The notes: generated from the letters alone by a model not told the origin. 64,000 bases of DNA from Methylophilus sp. (GCF_008015755.1 NZ_SSGF01000002.1:60204-124203), one strand, 5' to 3'. Counted from the stretch's first letter, positions 34,032 through 40,912 are shown. Made by a program: numbers and translations.

Positions 34032-34400
34032 TTAATCTACGTTTTGCCCAATGCGCCACAACACACCTGAGGGGTCGGTGATACAAAAATCACGCATGCC
34101 CCAGCTTTGTAGCTGAATTGGCCATACCTTAACGCCATAAGTCTGAATAATGCCACTATGGTGTATGTTGTCCCACCAGGCATCCACATCCTGTACCAGC
34201 AGATGCATCATAAAATTCTCGGCCAGGTTCTCAACACAAAAATCCTGCAACAGAAAACTCGCGTGTGCATAGTGAAAATAAGCCACACCGCCGCCTTCTG
34301 ACGCCATGGTAAAGCCCATGTCTTGATAAAACTGCTTGGAAAGCGCGAAGTTTTTGGCGGGCACAAAGGCCTTGATTTCGGTGACTGTGAGATTAGACAT
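34032..34400 (-). CDS. VOC/glyoxalase-family protein
   Basis: AFVPAKNF.LSKQFY, QSWGMRDFCITDPSGVLWRIG. Confidence 0.9.
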   Translation of the reverse strand: MSNLTVTEIKAFVPAKNFALSKQFYQDMGFTMASEGGGVAYFHYAHASFLLQDFCVENLAENFMMHLLVQDVDAWWDNIHHSGIIQTYGVKVWPIQLQSWGMRDFCITDPSGVLWRIGQNVD

Positions 34401-34429
34401 AGTTTAAAAAGCCATTAAATCATCTGCAA

Positions 34430-34762
34430 CTAGCGCAATAACAAATAAATACAAAGCAGCGCCGACGTCATCGACAAGCCAAACGAAACAAACAGCATCG
34501 TCTTATAAGCCGCCACCTGTTTTTTTGCCGCCTGCCCTGCGTCCTCCAACGCCTGAATCGCCAGCTGCATTTTTTCTGCCAGCAAATGGATAGACTCCGC
34601 ATTTTGAATCGTCGCTGCCTGCAACTCCTCGATCTGGCTCGTCAATACAGGATCCACCTTGGCGGCCTCAGGCTTGGCAGTAAATGCAGGGATTGCCGCC
34701 GTCGCCACCTGCGCAATATAAGGCGCCACCGCCTTTAGAATGGGTAAAAACTGAATAGCCAC
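34430..34762 (-). CDS. Hypothetical coiled-coil protein with C-terminal TM anchor
   Basis: GTG start with GAGG RBS; heptad-like region followed by a hydrophobic C-terminus. Confidence 0.7.
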   Translation of the reverse strand: MAIQFLPILKAVAPYIAQVATAAIPAFTAKPEAAKVDPVLTSQIEELQAATIQNAESIHLLAEKMQLAIQALEDAGQAAKKQVAAYKTMLFVSFGLSMTSALLCIYLLLR

Positions 34763-34882
34763 ACAACACCTCAATGATTGGCACAAATACAATAGCCACC
34801 AATAGTAAAGCCTATGCTTTCAGGCGTCCACCCTGGTGTGTAGAAGAAAGTACAAGAGCAACTGTGGATGATGTTTCATGAC

Positions 34883-34926
34883 ACCTAACGTTTAAAAGCC
34901 AGTCCCGCTTGATGGATGGGTTAGGC
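34883..34926 (-). repeat. Terminal attC, internally deleted (44 bp)
   Basis: acctaacgttt-aaaagcca-gtcccgcttgatggatgggttaggc; lacks the L' box and half of the central stem. Confidence 0.85.
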
Positions 34927-34937
34927 TGCCTCATTTA

Positions 34938-35288
34938 TTATTGCCTTACCTTGAACTTGTTTAGATTCTTTCCTAGCGAATCATCACCTAGATTCCATTC
35001 GAAAATTGCAGCATCATTTTTGCGCACGGCATAGTACCCAACAAGATCACTTCCCACCCAATCTCTTGGCACGTCAAAGTGGTAATGCAATTGAAAAACA
35101 AAATATTTTTTTGAAGTGGAATAAAGCCAACAATAGTATTTGCCTTCTGGGTCTTCCATGGCTGAAAGGTGCTTTTTCTTGGCAGCGTCAGTCAGCATGG
35201 TGCATGCTTCGGTCTCTGATTTGACTGCAGCATTTACAGTAAATGTAGACATCATTAGAACTAAGATGGCTGACTTACCTCTGTGCAT
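34938..35288 (-). CDS. Cassette 9: hypothetical secreted protein
   Basis: Signal-peptide-like N-terminus, 2 Cys, bounded by attC sites. Confidence 0.85.
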   Translation of the reverse strand: MHRGKSAILVLMMSTFTVNAAVKSETEACTMLTDAAKKKHLSAMEDPEGKYYCWLYSTSKKYFVFQLHYHFDVPRDWVGSDLVGYYAVRKNDAAIFEWNLGDDSLGKNLNKFKVRQ

Positions 35289-35294
35289 GTAGAA

Positions 35295-35354
35295 GCCTAA
35301 CGTTTGACATAAGGGGCGCGCTTTAGCGCGTCCCGCTTGATGGATGGGTTAGGC
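35295..35354 (-). repeat. attC (60 bp, CAT-type L boxes)
   Basis: Minus strand GCCTAAC-ccatc-catcaagc...cttatg-tcaaac-GTTAGGC. Confidence 0.95.
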
Positions 35355-35363
35355 CGATACCAC

Positions 35364-35762
35364 TCACTTGATTTTGCATTTATTACTGCCACGGGAAATT
35401 ATGATTTGCTCGGCCAGTTGACCATTCATGCCGCAATGATAGCCGTGCGAAAGATCAACGAACCGAACCGTATAAGTGTTACCTCTTTGTTCAATTACCG
35501 CAGCCCCTTCGTCGAAATTAATCGTTGTAATTTTTCCTTGATCAGACCACTTCGTGTCTTCGTCTCCACGTCGAGCGCTTACGTCACAGCTATATTCGCC
35601 GGCAGTGCTGAAATACTTAAGTCCTAATACCTTTTCGCTTTCTATCTCGAGTGACAGCGAGTCAGTGAAATGCCCTTTTCCAGAATTGCACTTCAAATTC
35701 TCGCCAGCCCAAGATTGAGAAATAGAAAACACAGCAATCACTATGAGAATTATCTTGGACAA
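35364..35762 (-). CDS. Cassette 8: hypothetical secreted protein (4 Cys)
   Basis: TTG start with GGAG RBS; signal peptide ending SWA-G. Confidence 0.85.
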   Translation of the reverse strand: MSKIILIVIAVFSISQSWAGENLKCNSGKGHFTDSLSLEIESEKVLGLKYFSTAGEYSCDVSARRGDEDTKWSDQGKITTINFDEGAAVIEQRGNTYTVRFVDLSHGYHCGMNGQLAEQIIISRGSNKCKIK

Positions 35763-35772
35763 TTTGACTCCA

Positions 35773-35830
35773 GCCTAACGTTTGACATAAGGGGCGCCGC
35801 AAGGCGTCCCGCTTGATGGATGGGTTAGGT
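35773..35830 (-). repeat. attC (58 bp, CAT-type)
   Basis: gcctaacgtttgacataaggggcgccgcaaggcgtcccgcttgatggatgggttaggt. Confidence 0.95.
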
Positions 35831-35845
35831 TTTTTAAAACACCAA

Positions 35846-36046
35846 TCATTCTGGAGTATTTTCAAGTTCTTGATATAAGTCTTGGAGTGCTTTGTCAAAA
35901 GAAGCTACAAGAGTTTTTGACATTTGAGCATTCGAAGAGCCCTTGTATTTTCCATTATTCCAAGCCTGAGACTCACGCTCTGCAACAGCTTTTTGGCTTT
36001 GTTTTTTCTCTATTTCCTTGAGGATTTCATCTCTTTTTCTCATCAC
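35846..36046 (-). CDS. Cassette 7, second ORF: hypothetical 66-aa charged helical protein
   Basis: Starts 2 nt after the stop of the preceding ORF; no attC between the two. Confidence 0.75.
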   Translation of the reverse strand: MMRKRDEILKEIEKKQSQKAVAERESQAWNNGKYKGSSNAQMSKTLVASFDKALQDLYQELENTPE

Positions 36047-36048
36047 GA

Positions 36049-36231
36049 TTAACCTGCATTTCTTATAAGTTCATTTAGCAATAATTTTGCTAAGACATTG
36101 TTATTTGATGAGACGGAAGCTGATTTACTTCCCAAGTTAACTGAACTTACGGTAAGCATTCCATCTTCAACTTTTGCTGTGGCTTGATATAGCTTGCCGT
36201 CTTTTTCAACTTCAACTTCAAATCTAGTCAT
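36049..36231 (-). CDS. Cassette 7, first ORF: hypothetical 60-aa protein
   Basis: ATG 6 nt after the GTTAGGT core. Confidence 0.75.
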   Translation of the reverse strand: MTRFEVEVEKDGKLYQATAKVEDGMLTVSSVNLGSKSASVSSNNNVLAKLLLNELIRNAG

Positions 36232-36237
36232 ATTTAA

Positions 36238-36297
36238 ACCTAACGTTTGAATTCAGGGGCCTGCTTTAGCAGGTCCCGCTTGAATGAGGGGTTAGGC
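36238..36297 (-). repeat. attC (60 bp, variant AAT-type)
   Basis: acctaacgtttgaattcaggggcctgctttagcaggtcccgcttgaatgaggggttaggc. Confidence 0.93.
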
Positions 36298-36302
36298 AAC
36301 TT

Positions 36303-36587
36303 TTAATTTTTAGCATGATTTTTCTTTTTATTAAGATAAGTGGGAATTTTATCTAAACATTCCTTTGATCGCCTTGTGATTTCATTCAATTCATTCTCGT
36401 AGTAGTAGTCTCGATTTAGCTCTCGAAGTCTTTTAGCAAGAAGCTCACTCTCAGCACACTCAGGAATGTTAGCATTAAATTCTTTCTGCAACTCTGGGTC
36501 TATAGGCCTCGCCCTGCTCCAATATAGAAATAATGCATAAATTAGAATACAAAGTACCAAAACAATTATCAGAATCTTTTTTGCCAT
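36303..36587 (-). CDS. Cassette 6: hypothetical N-terminally anchored membrane protein (94 aa)
   Basis: Start MAKKILII at 36587, 9 nt after the core site; the longer ORF-track call reads through attC. Confidence 0.82.
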   Translation of the reverse strand: MAKKILIIVLVLCILIYALFLYWSRARPIDPELQKEFNANIPECAESELLAKRLRELNRDYYYENELNEITRRSKECLDKIPTYLNKKKNHAKN

Positions 36588-36596
36588 TCGCGACTG

Positions 36597-36654
36597 GCCT
36601 AACGTTTGACATAAGGGGCGCCGTAAGGCGTCCCGCTTGATGGATGGGTTGGGC
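36597..36654 (-). repeat. attC (58 bp, CAT-type)
   Basis: gcctaacgtttgacataaggggcgccgtaaggcgtcccgcttgatggatgggttgggc. Confidence 0.95.
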
Positions 36655-36660
36655 CGTGAC

Positions 36661-37005
36661 TTATTTGTACCATTCAGGTTTCCTTGTTTTCTTACAGAAA
36701 TGCCGTGCCGCTGATTTGTCTTTTGGCTCAATCTCGGACTCTAACTCATTTAGTTTTGTAAGAATTTTTTCTTGGTTCTTATACTTGTGTTTGAGTTTTG
36801 TTAGTTTCGCATCGGTTCCTGTGCAGGATTGGCAAATTGACCAGTCAATATCGGCTTGCCTTTCTTCATCGTAACCATACTCACCTCGCCAGTGGTCGCA
36901 TGATTCGCGCAGTTCTAAATAGCTTGAAACATCTCTCGGTAAGGCATCTTCTGCCAGTGACTGGCAGGCAATGCAAAACAAAATGTATAAGCAAAGAAAT
37001 CTCAT
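36661..37005 (-). CDS. Cassette 5: hypothetical secreted Cys-rich protein
   Basis: Signal peptide ending SLA-E; LP.DV..R..CDHWRGE..YD.ER..C..CTGTD. Confidence 0.87.
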   Translation of the reverse strand: MRFLCLYILFCIACQSLAEDALPRDVSSYLELRESCDHWRGEYGYDEERQADIDWSICQSCTGTDAKLTKLKHKYKNQEKILTKLNELESEIEPKDKSAARHFCKKTRKPEWYK

Positions 37006-37008
37006 GTG

Positions 37009-37066
37009 GCCTAACGTTTGAATTAAGGGGCGCCGTTAGGCGTCCCGCTTGAATGATGGGTTAGCC
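37009..37066 (-). repeat. attC (58 bp, AAT-type)
   Basis: gcctaacgtttgaattaaggggcgccgttaggcgtcccgcttgaatgatgggttagcc. Confidence 0.95.
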
Positions 37067-37067
37067 A

Positions 37068-37589
37068 TTACCACATATACCATGATATGACCGCTAAATT
37101 TTCTTTTGGAATAAGCTCAATGAGTATCTCGGCATCCTCACGAGTAGCTCGATTAGTGAGGGTGTATTGGCTTGCCATTAAACTTAGAGGCTTCAATTTT
37201 TTGTCCATATTCGCACAACCATCAGATTTTGTTTCGTGAACGGGTTCGGACGAAATCGAGGTTTTAAGCTGCTCCCATGAGGTTTGAGACAGCCGTACAA
37301 TAAAACATACTGAATAATCACCATGAATATCGGGGTATGTAGCAGTTTTGTATTGAAATTGGGCATCGGATGGCAGGTTAACTTTAACCAAGCGTTGCAA
37401 CTCAGAAGTGTAAAAAGACTGAGGTGGATAGACTGCATCATAAATTGACCATAAAACCCAAAGAAAACTGGCGGCTAGAAACATGCGACCATAGCGACCT
37501 TTTGACCATAACCAACGAACTGAAAAGAATAATAGTACTGGAATGCAAATTAACAATAAACCAAGAATGATTAAACCTATGTATCCCAT
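37068..37589 (-). CDS. Cassette 4: hypothetical 2-TM protein with periplasmic domain
   Basis: Two N-terminal TM segments, then LPSDA..K.ATYPDIHGDY. Confidence 0.87.
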   Translation of the reverse strand: MGYIGLIILGLLLICIPVLLFFSVRWLWSKGRYGRMFLAASFLWVLWSIYDAVYPPQSFYTSELQRLVKVNLPSDAQFQYKTATYPDIHGDYSVCFIVRLSQTSWEQLKTSISSEPVHETKSDGCANMDKKLKPLSLMASQYTLTNRATREDAEILIELIPKENLAVISWYMW

Positions 37590-37592
37590 AAT

Positions 37593-37652
37593 GGCTAACG
37601 TTTGAATTAAGGGGCGCGCTTTAGCGCGTCCCGCTTGAATGATGGGTTAGGT
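37593..37652 (-). repeat. attC (60 bp, AAT-type)
   Basis: ggctaacgtttgaattaaggggcgcgctttagcgcgtcccgcttgaatgatgggttaggt. Confidence 0.95.
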
Positions 37653-37663
37653 GGCCTAGACAC

Positions 37664-38473
37664 TTATGAGTGACCCCATACCTTTACTGATGAAACGACC
37701 AATATGACAGCGAGGATGGGTAGAAGCACTGCTGGAGGAACGATACCCAACAAACGCCCACCAATAAAAGCACCCAGCAAAGACCCAGCAGCCATAACTA
37801 AAAGAAAATGGCGTTGTGCTCGTATAACGCCAAAACTTTGGTCTTGGCTATAACGAGTGAAACCAACAAGCATGGTGGGAAGACTGACGGCAAGTGAAAG
37901 GCTGCCAGCAAGTTTAATGTCAGCGCCAAACAACAGAACAATAGTGGGGATGAGCAGCTCGCCACCTGCTACCCCCATAAGTGAAGCAACCACACCAATA
38001 GCAAAACCAGCTACAGCGCCAGCGATGGCTAAAGACACCCCAGTTAATAAGGGTGCACTACCCGAGCTTGGCTCGTGACCCAATAACAAAGCTGCTGCAA
38101 TAACCAAGAGCAAAACGGCTAGCACACGATAAAGGGTTTTGGATTTAAGTTTAGTTGCCCAGCCGGCACCAAGCCATGCGCCAGCTAAACTACCAGCGAG
38201 CAAAGTAAGTATTACATCCCAGCGCCCGAGAATGCTTGAGAGAGGCACAGCAACTGCCCGAAAGGGCAGAGACGACGCTACAACAACAAGGCTAATGGCT
38301 TTGTTAAGAATAACGGCTGAGAGTGCATTAAAGCCGAATAGGCCAATAAGCAAAGGCAGACGAAACTCAGCGCCACCAAGACCAATAAGGCCTCCAAGTG
38401 TACCAACAGCAAAGCCGCTGCCAAAAATAGTGATGGCTTTATATGGATTCACATTAGATTCAATTTGAGACAA
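37664..38473 (-). CDS. Cassette 3: TSUP (TauE/SafE sulfite-exporter) family transporter
   Basis: Duplicated GGLIGLGGAEFRLP and SLMGVAGGELLIP signatures; about 8 TM. Confidence 0.92.
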   Translation of the reverse strand: MSQIESNVNPYKAITIFGSGFAVGTLGGLIGLGGAEFRLPLLIGLFGFNALSAVILNKAISLVVVASSLPFRAVAVPLSSILGRWDVILTLLAGSLAGAWLGAGWATKLKSKTLYRVLAVLLLVIAAALLLGHEPSSGSAPLLTGVSLAIAGAVAGFAIGVVASLMGVAGGELLIPTIVLLFGADIKLAGSLSLAVSLPTMLVGFTRYSQDQSFGVIRAQRHFLLVMAAGSLLGAFIGGRLLGIVPPAVLLPILAVILVVSSVKVWGHS

Positions 38474-38485
38474 GATGGTTTAGAC

Positions 38486-38545
38486 ACCTAACGTTTGAAT
38501 TAAGGGGCGTGCTTTAGCACGTCCCGCTTGAATGATGGGTTAGGT
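38486..38545 (-). repeat. attC (60 bp, AAT-type)
   Basis: acctaacgtttgaattaaggggcgtgctttagcacgtcccgcttgaatgatgggttaggt. Confidence 0.95.
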
Positions 38546-38890
38546 GTTTGTTTTAACATGGCGAGACCTTATAAGTAACCCTAAGCCAGCAAAAATTAAA
38601 ATAAGAAAAGGACTGAACCAGCTAACAAAAATGTAAGTGCTACTGGCTTCTTGAGCAATAGCTGCTGCAATGTATGGGTCATTAACTTCGAATAGCCCAG
38701 ATAATGTTAGCAGCCCTAACATTGGTAAGACAATAAGCAATAGCGTGGGGTTGAAACGAGCTGACAAATACGATGCAATGACACCAACAACCATTGTTAT
38801 TGAAATTGATAAAAGCGAAGGCATTTTATCCATGACTTCGGCATTGCAGATTGCCGGGAATAGCAAAAATATGATTAATGCAACTCTCAT
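38540..38890 (-). CDS. Cassette 2: hypothetical membrane protein (signal peptide + about 3 TM)
   Basis: AEVMDKMPSL...DPYIAAAIAQEA; stop codon lies inside the ACCTAAC inverse core. Confidence 0.87.
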   Translation of the reverse strand: MRVALIIFLLFPAICNAEVMDKMPSLLSISITMVVGVIASYLSARFNPTLLLIVLPMLGLLTLSGLFEVNDPYIAAAIAQEASSTYIFVSWFSPFLILIFAGLGLLIRSRHVKTNT

Positions 38891-38893
38891 GAC

Positions 38894-38951
38894 ACCTAAC
38901 GTTTGAATTAAGGGGCGCCGTTAGGCGTCCCGCTTGAATGATGGGTTAGAC
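38894..38951 (-). repeat. attC (58 bp, AAT-type)
   Basis: acctaacgtttgaattaaggggcgccgttaggcgtcccgcttgaatgatgggttagac. Confidence 0.95.
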
Positions 38952-39251
38952 CGTAGTTGTACCATTTATTAATGCCTTTGCAATGGAGAGTAGCTCTACA
39001 AATTTAGGGGCCTGAGGGTTTGCAACTCCAGATAAATGAGGACCTATATCTTGCCACTGCTCTGGAGATGTAGCCGACTGTAAAAACCCATAGCCTTCTT
39101 TACCATCCCAGACCAACCTAAATTGTGAACCCTGATTAGCATTAAATACACAATATGCGCTGCCACCAAAGAACTCAGGCTGTAGGTGCTCTTCAGCAAC
39201 AGTAGCGCCAAGGCTTTTAATGGCATCACGAATTGTCGAATATTCACGCAT
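38946..39251 (-). CDS. Cassette 1 (attI-proximal): hypothetical cytoplasmic protein
   Basis: ATG 5 nt after attI GTTAGAC; FRLVWDGKEG motif; stop inside GTCTAAC. Confidence 0.85.
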   Translation of the reverse strand: MREYSTIRDAIKSLGATVAEEHLQPEFFGGSAYCVFNANQGSQFRLVWDGKEGYGFLQSATSPEQWQDIGPHLSGVANPQAPKFVELLSIAKALINGTTTV

Positions 39252-39256
39252 TAGAG

Positions 39257-39310
39257 GTCTAACGTTAAATAGACCCCAAAAACGACAATAATTTTTTATT
39301 TAGTCTGGGG
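39257..39310 (-). other. attI recombination site (core GTTAGAC at 39257-39263)
   Basis: GTTRRRY core between cassette 1 and the intI start, with no attC hairpin; complementary to the cassette-1 inverse core; outer boundary approximate. Confidence 0.8.
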
Positions 39311-39393
39311 GCTATAAAATTTACAGTTTTATTTATCATAATAAAATCAATGAGGAGTATCTTTATATTACACCTGAGTTTAGGAGTTACGCT

Positions 39394-40377
39394 ATGGAAA
39401 ACACACCTGAGGTAAAGCCAACGCCAAAGTTATTTCCTTCTATTGTAGAGCGCTTGCGAGTGAAGCATTACAGCAAGCGCACCGAAGAGGCTTATGTACA
39501 ATGGATTAAACGATATATTTTGCACCATGGCAAGCGGCATCCGCGTGAAATGGGGGTGGCTGAGGTGGAGGCTTTTTTAACGCATCTGGCGGTGGCACGA
39601 AATGTATCTGCCAGCACGCAGAATCAGGCCAAAAGCGCCCTGCTGTTTTTATATAAAGAGGTGTTGGGGGTGGAGTTGCCATGGCTGGATAATGTGACAC
39701 AGGCGAAAGCCCCAAAACGGATGCCGGTGGTGCTTAACAAGCCTGAGGTGCAAGCCCTGCTCAACCGGCTGGATGGCACGATGTGGCTGATTGCGAGTTT
39801 GCTGTATGGCAGTGGCTTGCGGGTGATGGAGTGTCTGCGTTTACGGGTGAAAGATGTGGACTTTGTAAAGCGTGAAATTCTGGTGCGCGAGGGCAAGGGC
39901 TTTAAAGACCGGGTGACGATGTTACCGGCTGCGCTGATAGAACCTCTCAAGCAGCATCTGTTAAAAGTGAGGGCGTTGCATGAAGAAGATTTGGCTGCCG
40001 GATTTGGCGAGGTGTTTATGCCGATGGCACTGGATAGAAAATACCCCAATGCTGGCCGCGAGTGGGCTTGGCAATATGTGTTTCCTTCCATCAAGCGCTC
40101 TATAGACCCGACAAACAACAAGATTCGCCGCCACCATGCTGATGAAAAAACGGTGCAACGCGCGGTAAAAAATGCTGCCAAGGCGGGCAATATCGCTAAA
40201 CTGGCCACACCACACACGCTGCGGCACAGCTTTGCGACACATCTGCTGGAAGGCGGTTATGATATTCGCACGGTGCAGGAGTTATTGGGGCACAGTGATG
40301 TATCAACCACTATGATTTACACGCATGTGCTTAACAAGGGCGGGCTGGCCGTGAGTAGCCCGCTAGATGTGATTTAA
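39394..40377 (+). CDS. intI: Integron integrase (tyrosine recombinase)
   Basis: [16 protein letters not shown], IntI-specific [55 protein letters not shown]; catalytic residues appear intact. Confidence 0.97.
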
Positions 40378-40400
40378 AACCAGATGTGATTTAAAACCAG
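40365..40400. repeat. Perfect 17-bp tandem duplication at the intI/HPP junction
   Basis: agatgtgatttaaaacc occurs twice, followed by ag. Confidence 0.92.
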
Positions 40401-40912
40401 TATTTGGGGTAGCGCCCCTCACGTGTGAGGTTGTTATATACCAGCGCGACAACGGTGATGACAATGGCGCCGAACAGGGTGGGAAACCACAAAAACTGCC
40501 AGCTCATGGCCCCCTGGCTGGCAATCAACCAGACGATGACTGGATTGGAACCTGCGGGAGGATGCACGGTCCGCGTGAACATCATGGCCGCAATCGCAAG
40601 GCCAACCGCAATCCCTAACGCCCACCAACTACCCCCCAGTTGCGACACCACCAGCAGACCGATCAACGAACTTAAAAAGTGACCACCAATCACATTGCGT
40701 GGCTGGGCAAACGGTGCATCCGGGTAAGCAAACAAAATGACGCATGACGCGCCGAATGACCCCAGCACCAGCAACTGATCTAGCCGTGCAGTCATCAGCG
40801 CGGCTATGCTGATGGCAATCATGCCGCCCAACCCAGCCATGAGGATGGCTTTGCCACTGAACTTTGGCGGCAATGCCGCGTGCTCACCGGCAAGCTTATC
40901 TAACAGTTTCAT
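40391..40912 (-). CDS. HPP-family membrane protein
   Basis: GSFGASCVILF..P.APFAQPRNVIGGH, HPPAGSNP. Confidence 0.93.
   Translation of the reverse strand: MKLLDKLAGEHAALPPKFSGKAILMAGLGGMIAISIAALMTARLDQLLVLGSFGASCVILFAYPDAPFAQPRNVIGGHFLSSLIGLLVVSQLGGSWWALGIAVGLAIAAMMFTRTVHPPAGSNPVIVWLIASQGAMSWQFLWFPTLFGAIVITVVALVYNNLTREGRYPKYWF

Follow-up and report, generated by a model that had tools for sequence, protein, structure and literature searches.

Evidence for a complete chromosomal integron with nine small cassettes in a Methylotenera species

The window analysed here is a 64,000-nucleotide stretch of a 2.75-Mb methylotroph genome, and between positions 34883 and 40377 it carries an integrase gene (intI), an adjoining recombination site (attI) and an array of nine small gene cassettes with their attC sites, all of these integron parts being present and intact, the distal attC excepted. 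The array and intI are transcribed divergently, and the ten open reading frames (ORFs) of the cassettes, every one on the minus strand, point away from attI (Table 1). An initial annotation, made from the sequence of the window, described the segment as a sedentary and probably active chromosomal integron beside the fhc genes. Based on profile searches, alignments and a comparison with 36 same-genus species genomes (designated here by G numbers; about 20 kb around intI were taken from 20 of the species), we give a probability of about 0.88 to the reading that this segment is a complete chromosomal integron with nine small cassettes, belonging to a Methylotenera species.

The components of the locus

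The intI gene had been called intact, and it is indeed free of stops and encodes a protein that matches the NCBIfam model TIGR02249 ("integron integrase") with 483.3 bits, against a cut-off of 265. The counter-reading of an XerC/D or phage integrase found no support, since the XerC and XerD models score far below their cut-offs (148.9 bits against 335 and 145.3 bits against 330, respectively). Pfam recognizes an N-terminal SAM-like domain and a catalytic domain, and residues 16-325 align with the Vibrio cholerae integrase VchIntIA (PDB 2A3V) with an E value of 2.7e-89. In this alignment the catalytic residues R143, K168, H274, R277, H300 and Y309 are all there, as is the IntI-specific insertion with the residues of the extrahelical-base pocket (W226, P239, H247 and H248). 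From its sequence, then, the protein is a true integron integrase and not a member of XerC/D. It is encoded by the only intI in the genome, where two further partial matches to the integrase model (open frames of 301 and 315 amino acids) are probably XerC/D paralogues. The class-1-type equivalog model NF011946 gives 368 bits, under its cut-off of 435, and the closest plasmid-borne relatives, including IntI3, are 57-61% identical (classes 2, 4 and 5 were not individually compared). The ratio of nonsynonymous to synonymous substitution rates (dN/dS) of intI is 0.03-0.14 across the genus and 0.03-0.10 within the clade of the window, and the same-genus copies have zero stops; these values indicate that intI is under strong purifying selection.

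The attI core GTTAGAC reported by the initial annotation was found as the reverse complement of 39257-39263: the minus strand upstream of intI reads AACGTTAGACC, the attI core, with the crossover between G39263 and T39262. In an alignment of 21 intI-upstream regions the motif CTAACGTTAAWTAGACCCCAAAAACGA is kept in about 12 congeners and, of five relatives compared, four have BLAST homology that begins at 39258/39259, at most five bases from the crossover. A candidate intI promoter (Pint), sigma-70-like on the basis of its consensus match only, ends 47 nt before the intI ATG. The first ORFs of the nine cassettes begin 9-18 nt past the crossover point, so that the cassettes have no room for promoters of their own, and the array ORFs would have to rely on transcription from the attI/intI side, that is, on a putative cassette promoter (Pc) deduced from this layout. 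In most cassette ORFs the sole Shine-Dalgarno-like stretch is the AGG(T/C) of the R' core (for example GTTAGGTGTCATG), and this conserved core may at the same time be a weak ribosome-binding site.

The nine attC copies form one repeat family with a mean column identity of 85-87%, which bears out their earlier description as related, and the 2.75-Mb genome has nine occurrences of a 20-nt attC pattern, each at the integron locus, against none in a reversed control. Since the cassette ORFs lie on the minus strand, the window plus strand is the attC bottom strand, and on it eight of the sites, each 59 or 61 nt long, form the canonical attC hairpin, with a 5-7-bp R box (CTAAC/GTTAG), an unpaired spacer, an L box with the stem, and three single-base bulges (T, G and G), every one on the 3' arm; the bottom strand is stabler than the top in seven of the eight. 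With a covariance model made from these eight sites, the same family was found in the arrays of nine other species. Among 54 sites from nine species, 98% of the cells pair and five pairs show compensatory changes, values reached by none of 500 shuffles and not approached by any slid register, in an alignment that was itself fitted to the covariance model and thus somewhat favours structure. Nine related sites had been announced; the number and the common family stand, and it is the ninth that departs from the claim, being internally deleted and unfolded (-4.4 kcal/mol, z -0.54), with a covariance-model score of 30.5 bits against 78-88 for the others. About 70 nt missing from it are held by the long terminal attC of G018 in an alignment of the two. 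The short stub beyond it is entire in G018, its distal part is also kept in G006, and its R' core is common to the window and G018. Congeners commonly have a second attC length class of about 111 nt that contains a long insertion at its centre (L036:5473-5584, L038:6981-7092 and others), and in the window only the deleted attC9 represents it.

The cassettes (359-893 bp) have a guanine-plus-cytosine (GC) content below that of the flanks (array 0.37-0.45; flanks 0.50-0.56). Their functions had been described as mostly unknown, and in agreement with this only the transporter of cassette 3 has a significant match in Pfam, NCBIfam or PADLOC, the other nine of the ten ORFs having none. An N-terminal hydrophobic segment exceeds the hydropathy threshold in 6/10 of the ORFs, and the ORF of cassette 9, judged by eye, is a seventh with a signal-peptide-like N-terminus. 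We rejected a reading of the cassettes as defence systems (PADLOC matches none of the ten proteins) and one of the two-gene cassette 7 as a toxin-antitoxin pair, to which Pfam, NCBIfam and PADLOC give no support.

The register of the recombination cores within the cassettes carries a further part of the argument. In an array the physical attC is a hybrid, as the R' core takes its last six bases from the next cassette. When the opening core of each cassette is compared with its own R'', the two are exact complements in 8/9 cassettes, as the initial annotation had counted, and the complementary pairs include two unusual ones, GTTAGAC/GTCTAAC and GTTAGCC/GGCTAAC (the latter in cassette 4 only). 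In the register of the physical sites the cores match in just 2/9, and only 79 of 200,000 permutations reach eight matches (p about 4e-4). The single mismatch, already noted earlier, is that of cassette 5 (GTTAGGC against GTTGGGC), and it is a derived point change; the copy of this cassette in G012 keeps a perfect complement. A complementary core pair of its own in each cassette is what circular insertion, by recombination between the G and TT of the core, would leave as a footprint. By analogy with the integrase family, IntI would recombine the folded bottom strand of attC (here the window plus strand) with double-stranded attI, circular cassettes would be inserted between G and TT of the attI core, and recombination of attC with attC would lead to cassette excision.

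Table 1. Features of the integron locus and its immediate flanks, in window coordinates.
Feature	Position	Strand	Description	Basis
VOC gene	34032-34400	minus	glyoxalase/bleomycin-resistance-superfamily (VOC) protein; conserved distal flank	
120-aa gene	34430-34792	minus	120-aa protein, no assigned function; conserved distal flank	
Distal junction	34793-34888	minus	last R' core GTTAGGT and short stub; fixed	G018/G006 alignment
attC9	34883-34926	cassettes on minus	distal, internally deleted	
Cassette 9	34889-35300	minus	412 bp; ORF 35288->34938, 116 aa, signal-peptide-like N-terminus	
attC8	35294-35354	cassettes on minus		
Cassette 8	35301-35778	minus	478 bp; ORF 35762->35364, 132 aa, signal peptide	
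attC7	35772-35830	cassettes on minus		
Cassette 7	35779-36243	minus	465 bp; ORFs 36231->36049 (60 aa) and 36046->35846 (66 aa)	
attC6	36237-36297	cassettes on minus		
Cassette 6	36244-36602	minus	359 bp; ORF from ATG at 36587 to 36303, about 94 aa, N-terminal membrane anchor	
attC5	36596-36654	cassettes on minus	one R'' mismatch	
Cassette 5	36603-37014	minus	412 bp; ORF 37005->36661, 114 aa, signal peptide, 7 Cys	
attC4	37008-37066	cassettes on minus		
Cassette 4	37015-37598	minus	584 bp; ORF 37589->37068, 173 aa, N-terminal membrane anchor	
attC3	37592-37652	cassettes on minus		
Cassette 3	37599-38491	minus	893 bp; ORF 38473->37664, 269 aa, TauE/SafE-family membrane transporter	PF01925, E 3.4e-29
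attC2	38485-38545	cassettes on minus		
Cassette 2	38492-38899	minus	408 bp; ORF 38890->38540, 116 aa, four hydrophobic segments	
attC1	38893-38951	cassettes on minus		
Cassette 1	38900-39262	minus	363 bp; ORF 39251->38946, 101 aa, soluble, no family match	
attI region	39257-39393	minus	core GTTAGAC at 39263->39257	sequence; alignment of 21 intI-upstream regions
Pint (candidate)	39320-39347	plus	candidate intI promoter, TTTACA-16-TAAAAT	consensus scan, 10/12 matches
intI	39394-40377	plus	integron integrase, 327 aa	TIGR02249; alignment to 2A3V
HPP gene	40391-40912	minus	HPP-family membrane protein, directly downstream of intI	flank scan

The site and its cassettes across the genus

An intact intI (62-94% identity) is present in 32/36 of the congeneric species genomes, three of the four genomes without it being at most 92% complete, and in 17 of the 20 loci compared the flanking genes on both sides are those of the window, at the same site and in the same orientation; with one genome per species, these fractions serve as a proxy for the frequency of the element within a species. 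At the 17 loci one side of intI holds trhO (with fhcC/fhcD or the HPP gene too, where the stretch reaches them), and the other holds the VOC gene, usually accompanied by the 120-aa gene, EamA and a GSDH-like dehydrogenase, the HPP gene being an optional flank found in 6/20 loci. Between intI and the distal flank the array varies from none (a spacer of about 0.5-0.8 kb) to 22 attC over 12 kb in G012. The distance to fhcC, given earlier as about 1.7 kb, measures 1,683 bp, and no functional sense of this closeness is apparent. A scan of the ten flanking ORFs turned up neither a transposase nor a phage integrase, in line with the initial annotation, and ARAGORN finds no tRNA gene in the window; neither a larger mobile element nor the scatter of sites among close relatives that would have spoken for one was seen, given that 17/20 loci share the site.

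The orientation of the locus relative to replication follows from two observations. The GC skew of the plus strand is negative in 14/16 4-kb bins of the window and, in four of five complete congeners, intI is on the minus strand and the distance of the locus from dnaA amounts to 41-46% of the chromosome. Both place the attC bottom strands on the leading-strand template, an arrangement reported for 25/30 sedentary chromosomal integrons (PMC5371416).

The opposite side of the locus, away from the array, shows variation too. In G005 a 734-amino-acid ORF, GGDEF/EAL-like by eye, lies between trhO and the HPP gene (L137:1933-4137), L037 and L045 have a gap of about 2.4 kb at the position of this ORF, and in L042 about 2.3 kb separate trhO from intI; in the window there is no such gap, and variation thus extends to the intI-distal side of the locus.

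Taken over the genus, the element is resident in Methylotenera and sedentary in kind: its homogeneous attC sites, its fixed chromosomal site, its orientation towards replication and its position outside the mobile classes are general hallmarks of sedentary integrons. The formal definition of Cury et al. 2016 (PMC4889954) asks for more than 19 attC, presence in 100% of the genomes of a species, a non-plasmid location and an IntI outside classes 1-5, and for the last two points we find chromosomal synteny together with the distant plasmid matches and the sub-threshold NF011946 score given above.

In marked difference to the site, the cassettes themselves turn over, and hardly any is common to the arrays of different species. 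Cassette 5 is the only one of the window with homologues among the 20 congeneric loci, and G006, the sister by flanks (proteins 96-98% identical), has nine attC and zero cassettes in common with the window. Cassette 5 is about 95% identical in nucleotides to its counterpart in G012, whose flanks are only 71-84% identical; the homology runs from the shared upstream GTTAGGC core to a point three bases beyond the crossover in the R' core of the cassette itself, the neighbours in the two arrays being unrelated and the depth in the array different. An all-against-all comparison of the arrays gave two further single-cassette matches (93-95.5%, at different positions), and longer shared blocks were found only at the distal ends of the arrays of sister species. 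Distal sharing with differing attI-proximal cassettes is expected if insertion takes place at attI. Core complementarity, the complete turnover of cassettes between sister species, sharing at core boundaries and the low dN/dS of intI give indirect support to the earlier proposal that the integron is probably active, these footprints being those of an evolutionary time scale.

The family of cassette 5 (a Cys-rich, secreted protein of 114 amino acids, 36661-37005 in the window) has also been observed outside the array: proteins 55-56% identical are encoded by the last gene before VOC in L037:10125-10427 and L045:7270-7575, two species that are both without the 120-aa gene, and the family is thus represented by a mobile cassette in some loci and by a fixed gene at the distal end in others.

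A search for attC elsewhere in the genome was made in eleven congeners, ten of them without attC of this family beside intI and the eleventh the intI-less G022. Ten of the eleven carry same-family attC at other places, clustered in several, G022 included. G007 has 17 attC over 8.4 kb on another contig (C2:449343-457787), and clusters far from intI are found as well in G010 (C1:319183-321870), G028, G021, G033 and G022 (C32:19687-20216). In G033, G020 and G021 the window attC model, with filters off, finds no attC beside intI and detects some at other places in the three genomes. The dN/dS of intI is 0.07-0.12 in the four empty-array species for which it was determined (G007 not among them), and this purifying selection, together with the distant attC clusters, suggests that IntI could act in trans on dispersed arrays.

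The window genome itself has one extra, degenerate solo attC (54 bits, C26:229639-229699, L142:2040-2100), which may be a single cassette at a secondary site. It directly adjoins a 92-amino-acid ORF (L142 2135-2413, minus strand), and near it lies a 182-amino-acid ORF that by eye resembles an IS200/REP-associated tyrosine transposase, with inverted REP-like palindromes on both sides of it (GGGTGGGCAACTCGTTGCCCAC); upstream on C26, three small ORFs have the look of a toxin-antitoxin set.

Inheritance and activity of the platform

Several observations weigh against the reading of a complete, active and sedentary integron. In its parts, the array has 9 attC, and not the more than 19 of the formal definition, and the deletion in attC9 means that cassette 9 is probably no longer excisable. 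With regard to expression, no LexA box (CTGT-N8-ACAG, at most one mismatch) was found in 39263-39393, the 25 matches in the whole window equalling the chance expectation of 21, so that the usual SOS control is not evident; on the cassette strand a strict scan returned no Pc and a relaxed scan only sigma-70-like candidates matching 8/12 positions; and most cassette ORFs have no clear Shine-Dalgarno sequence. As to the site, G022 (99% complete) has fhcD-fhcC-trhO directly followed by aqpZ-EamA-GSDH, and, finally, the IntI and flank phylogenies are in conflict, so inheritance has not been simply vertical.

The empty site of G022 (L136, G022:C7:1-6000) bears on the extent of the unit. There trhO lies about 430 bp from aqpZ, the HPP gene, intI, the array, the 120-aa gene and the VOC gene are all missing, and the intergenic sequence has no similarity to the window junctions. 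The interval 34032-40912 is, from this comparison, an insertion/deletion unit in a variable spot and not strict core genome. Of the location assigned by the initial annotation, the sedentary part is thus borne out by the 17/20 loci, and the core-genome part gives way to a variable island that is empty in one nearly complete congener. Because both the 120-aa and the VOC gene are missing at the empty site, these two may be old cassettes, fixed in place, whose attC have eroded.

The phylogenetic conflict leads to a refinement of the reading which we hold to be likely, namely that the platform stays at one locus without being inherited vertically, two or more deep intI lineages of the genus, about 65% identical in amino acids, having been swapped, and recombined within the gene, by way of the conserved flanks. 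In a tree of five flanking proteins the window pairs with G006 (support 99/99, 96-98% amino-acid identity), and this pair sits in a clade with G020, G027 and G018. In the IntI tree the window groups with G018, G027 and G012 (93% identity), and G006 and G020 fall in the other major clade (67-70% identity to the window, 70% for G006). Approximately unbiased (AU) tests reject congruence both ways, with p 1.9e-68 for the flank data and 6.5e-6, 6.9e-6 and 2.8e-43 for the IntI data. Moreover, signs of recombination are visible within the gene. G006 and the window agree at 91-97% over attI and nucleotides 1-274 of intI, and at 63% over the other 710 nt, where G006 falls into the other clade (AU test of the mosaic: p 0.0015 at the 3' end of the gene and 0.11 at the 5' end). 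Over the final 290 nt of the window intI the identity to G018 is 98-100%, compared with 72-85% in the part immediately before. Against this stand the facts that the G006 breakpoint was picked after viewing the identity profile, which makes its test post hoc, that several of the genomes are drafts and a chimeric assembly of G006 is possible, and that the flank tree is built from five genes adjoining the locus, which may themselves recombine. The simplest reading of the whole is homologous recombination between species in and around intI.

Carried one step further, the platform could be regarded as a recombining allele, with two intI lineages exchanged, at least one natural chimeric integrase, and species with empty arrays that keep attC elsewhere and an IntI acting in trans. 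The G006 gene would then be a chimera, still intact and at work on an unchanged family of attC, that joins the attI and N-terminal domain of one lineage to the catalytic domain of the other. We lean slightly towards this picture, the chimera and the allele being taken jointly.

A complete and probably active integron must also be set against a fossil one, in which the parts are real, recombination has ceased, the cassettes are fixed and intI is kept for some other reason or by chance. The deleted distal attC, the derived core mismatch of cassette 5 and the lack of a recognizable Pc promoter or LexA box are what such an array could be expected to show. We nevertheless consider it unlikely, since it does not account for the strong purifying selection on intI within the clade of the window, nor for eight attC that are intact and foldable, nor for a sister species with none of the nine cassettes; single cassettes shared between species at 93-95.5% (with flanks of 71-84% in the one pair measured) imply recent movement.

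Lastly, that the integron is mobile, either by itself or within some larger mobile element (transposon, genomic island, integrative and conjugative element or prophage) brought near fhc by chance, is very improbable: the empty site in G022, the conflict of the two trees and the low GC of the array would suit it, but the site and orientation common to 17/20 species, the lack of tRNA genes in the window and of transposases or phage integrases among the flanking ORFs, the distance to plasmid-borne relatives (at most 61% identity, 57% for IntI3), the NF011946 score of 368 bits under its cut-off of 435, and the flank homology with relatives, unbroken up to the array and up to intI, all stand against it.

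Comparison with known integrons

The kind of element described here is already well known, an integron of Methylobacillus flagellatus having been described in 2008, and our results leave the knowledge of how integrons work unchanged. With this finding the freshwater methylotrophs, a group with hardly any discussion of integrons, gain a well-documented chromosomal integron that spans a genus; we found no paper describing a Methylotenera integron in the literature searched, and the supplements of a 2022 integron-genome paper have no entry for Methylotenera, Methylobacillus or Methylophilus. What adds most beyond confirmation is the comparative picture at the level of the genus, together with the mosaic integrase. 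The genus offers a compact natural series for the gain, loss and exchange of cassettes in small integrons, ranging from 0 to about 22 cassettes at one site and including remote attC clusters, an empty site, single cassettes shared between species and a mosaic integrase, and it indicates that exchange between species can reach the platform itself, its fixed site notwithstanding.

Among mobile integrons, the class 3 integrase IntI3 is the best-populated plasmid-borne relative and belongs to the same soil/freshwater group of IntI; it differs in being 56.7% identical, and the window locus is chromosomal, with neither resistance cassettes nor transposon context. Among structurally known integrases, VchIntIA (IntI4, 2A3V) has 310 residues aligned, and the catalytic residues and the pocket residues W219, P232, H240 and H241 (its own numbering) are common to both; its W157, however, corresponds to R165 in the window IntI.

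Genus-wide chromosomal integrons at fixed sites are classical and exist, besides the superintegrons of Vibrio, which are the best known, in Xanthomonas (at ilvD) and in Pseudomonas stutzeri. With Vibrio-type sedentary integrons the locus has in common a single platform per genome, a conserved site, homogeneous attC common across species, a cassette content that is species-specific, and bottom strands on the leading-strand template (PMC5371416). It is unlike them in size, the window array counting 9 cassettes and those of congeners 0 to about 22, where sedentary integrons on the leading-strand template have a median of 100, and in its attC (59-61 nt, with a 111-nt class in congeners, against Vibrio repeats of 120-129 nt). 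It also has no recognizable toxin-antitoxin cassette, no LexA box was found at its intI promoter, and its IntI phylogeny is incongruent with the flanks.

The closest known system is the chromosomal integron of Methylobacillus flagellatus KT (Methylophilaceae), characterised by Nemergut et al. 2008 (PMC2426708) and used in later IntI phylogenies (Cambray et al. 2011, PMC3108266). It belongs to another genus and carries other cassettes. Nevertheless, it too is found in an obligate methylotroph of the same family. Its intI is chromosomal and falls in the soil/freshwater proteobacterial group; its array is short, with cassettes that are mostly hypothetical, and includes a gene of the bleomycin-resistance family, and at the distal flank of the window there is the VOC gene, of the glyoxalase/bleomycin-resistance superfamily.

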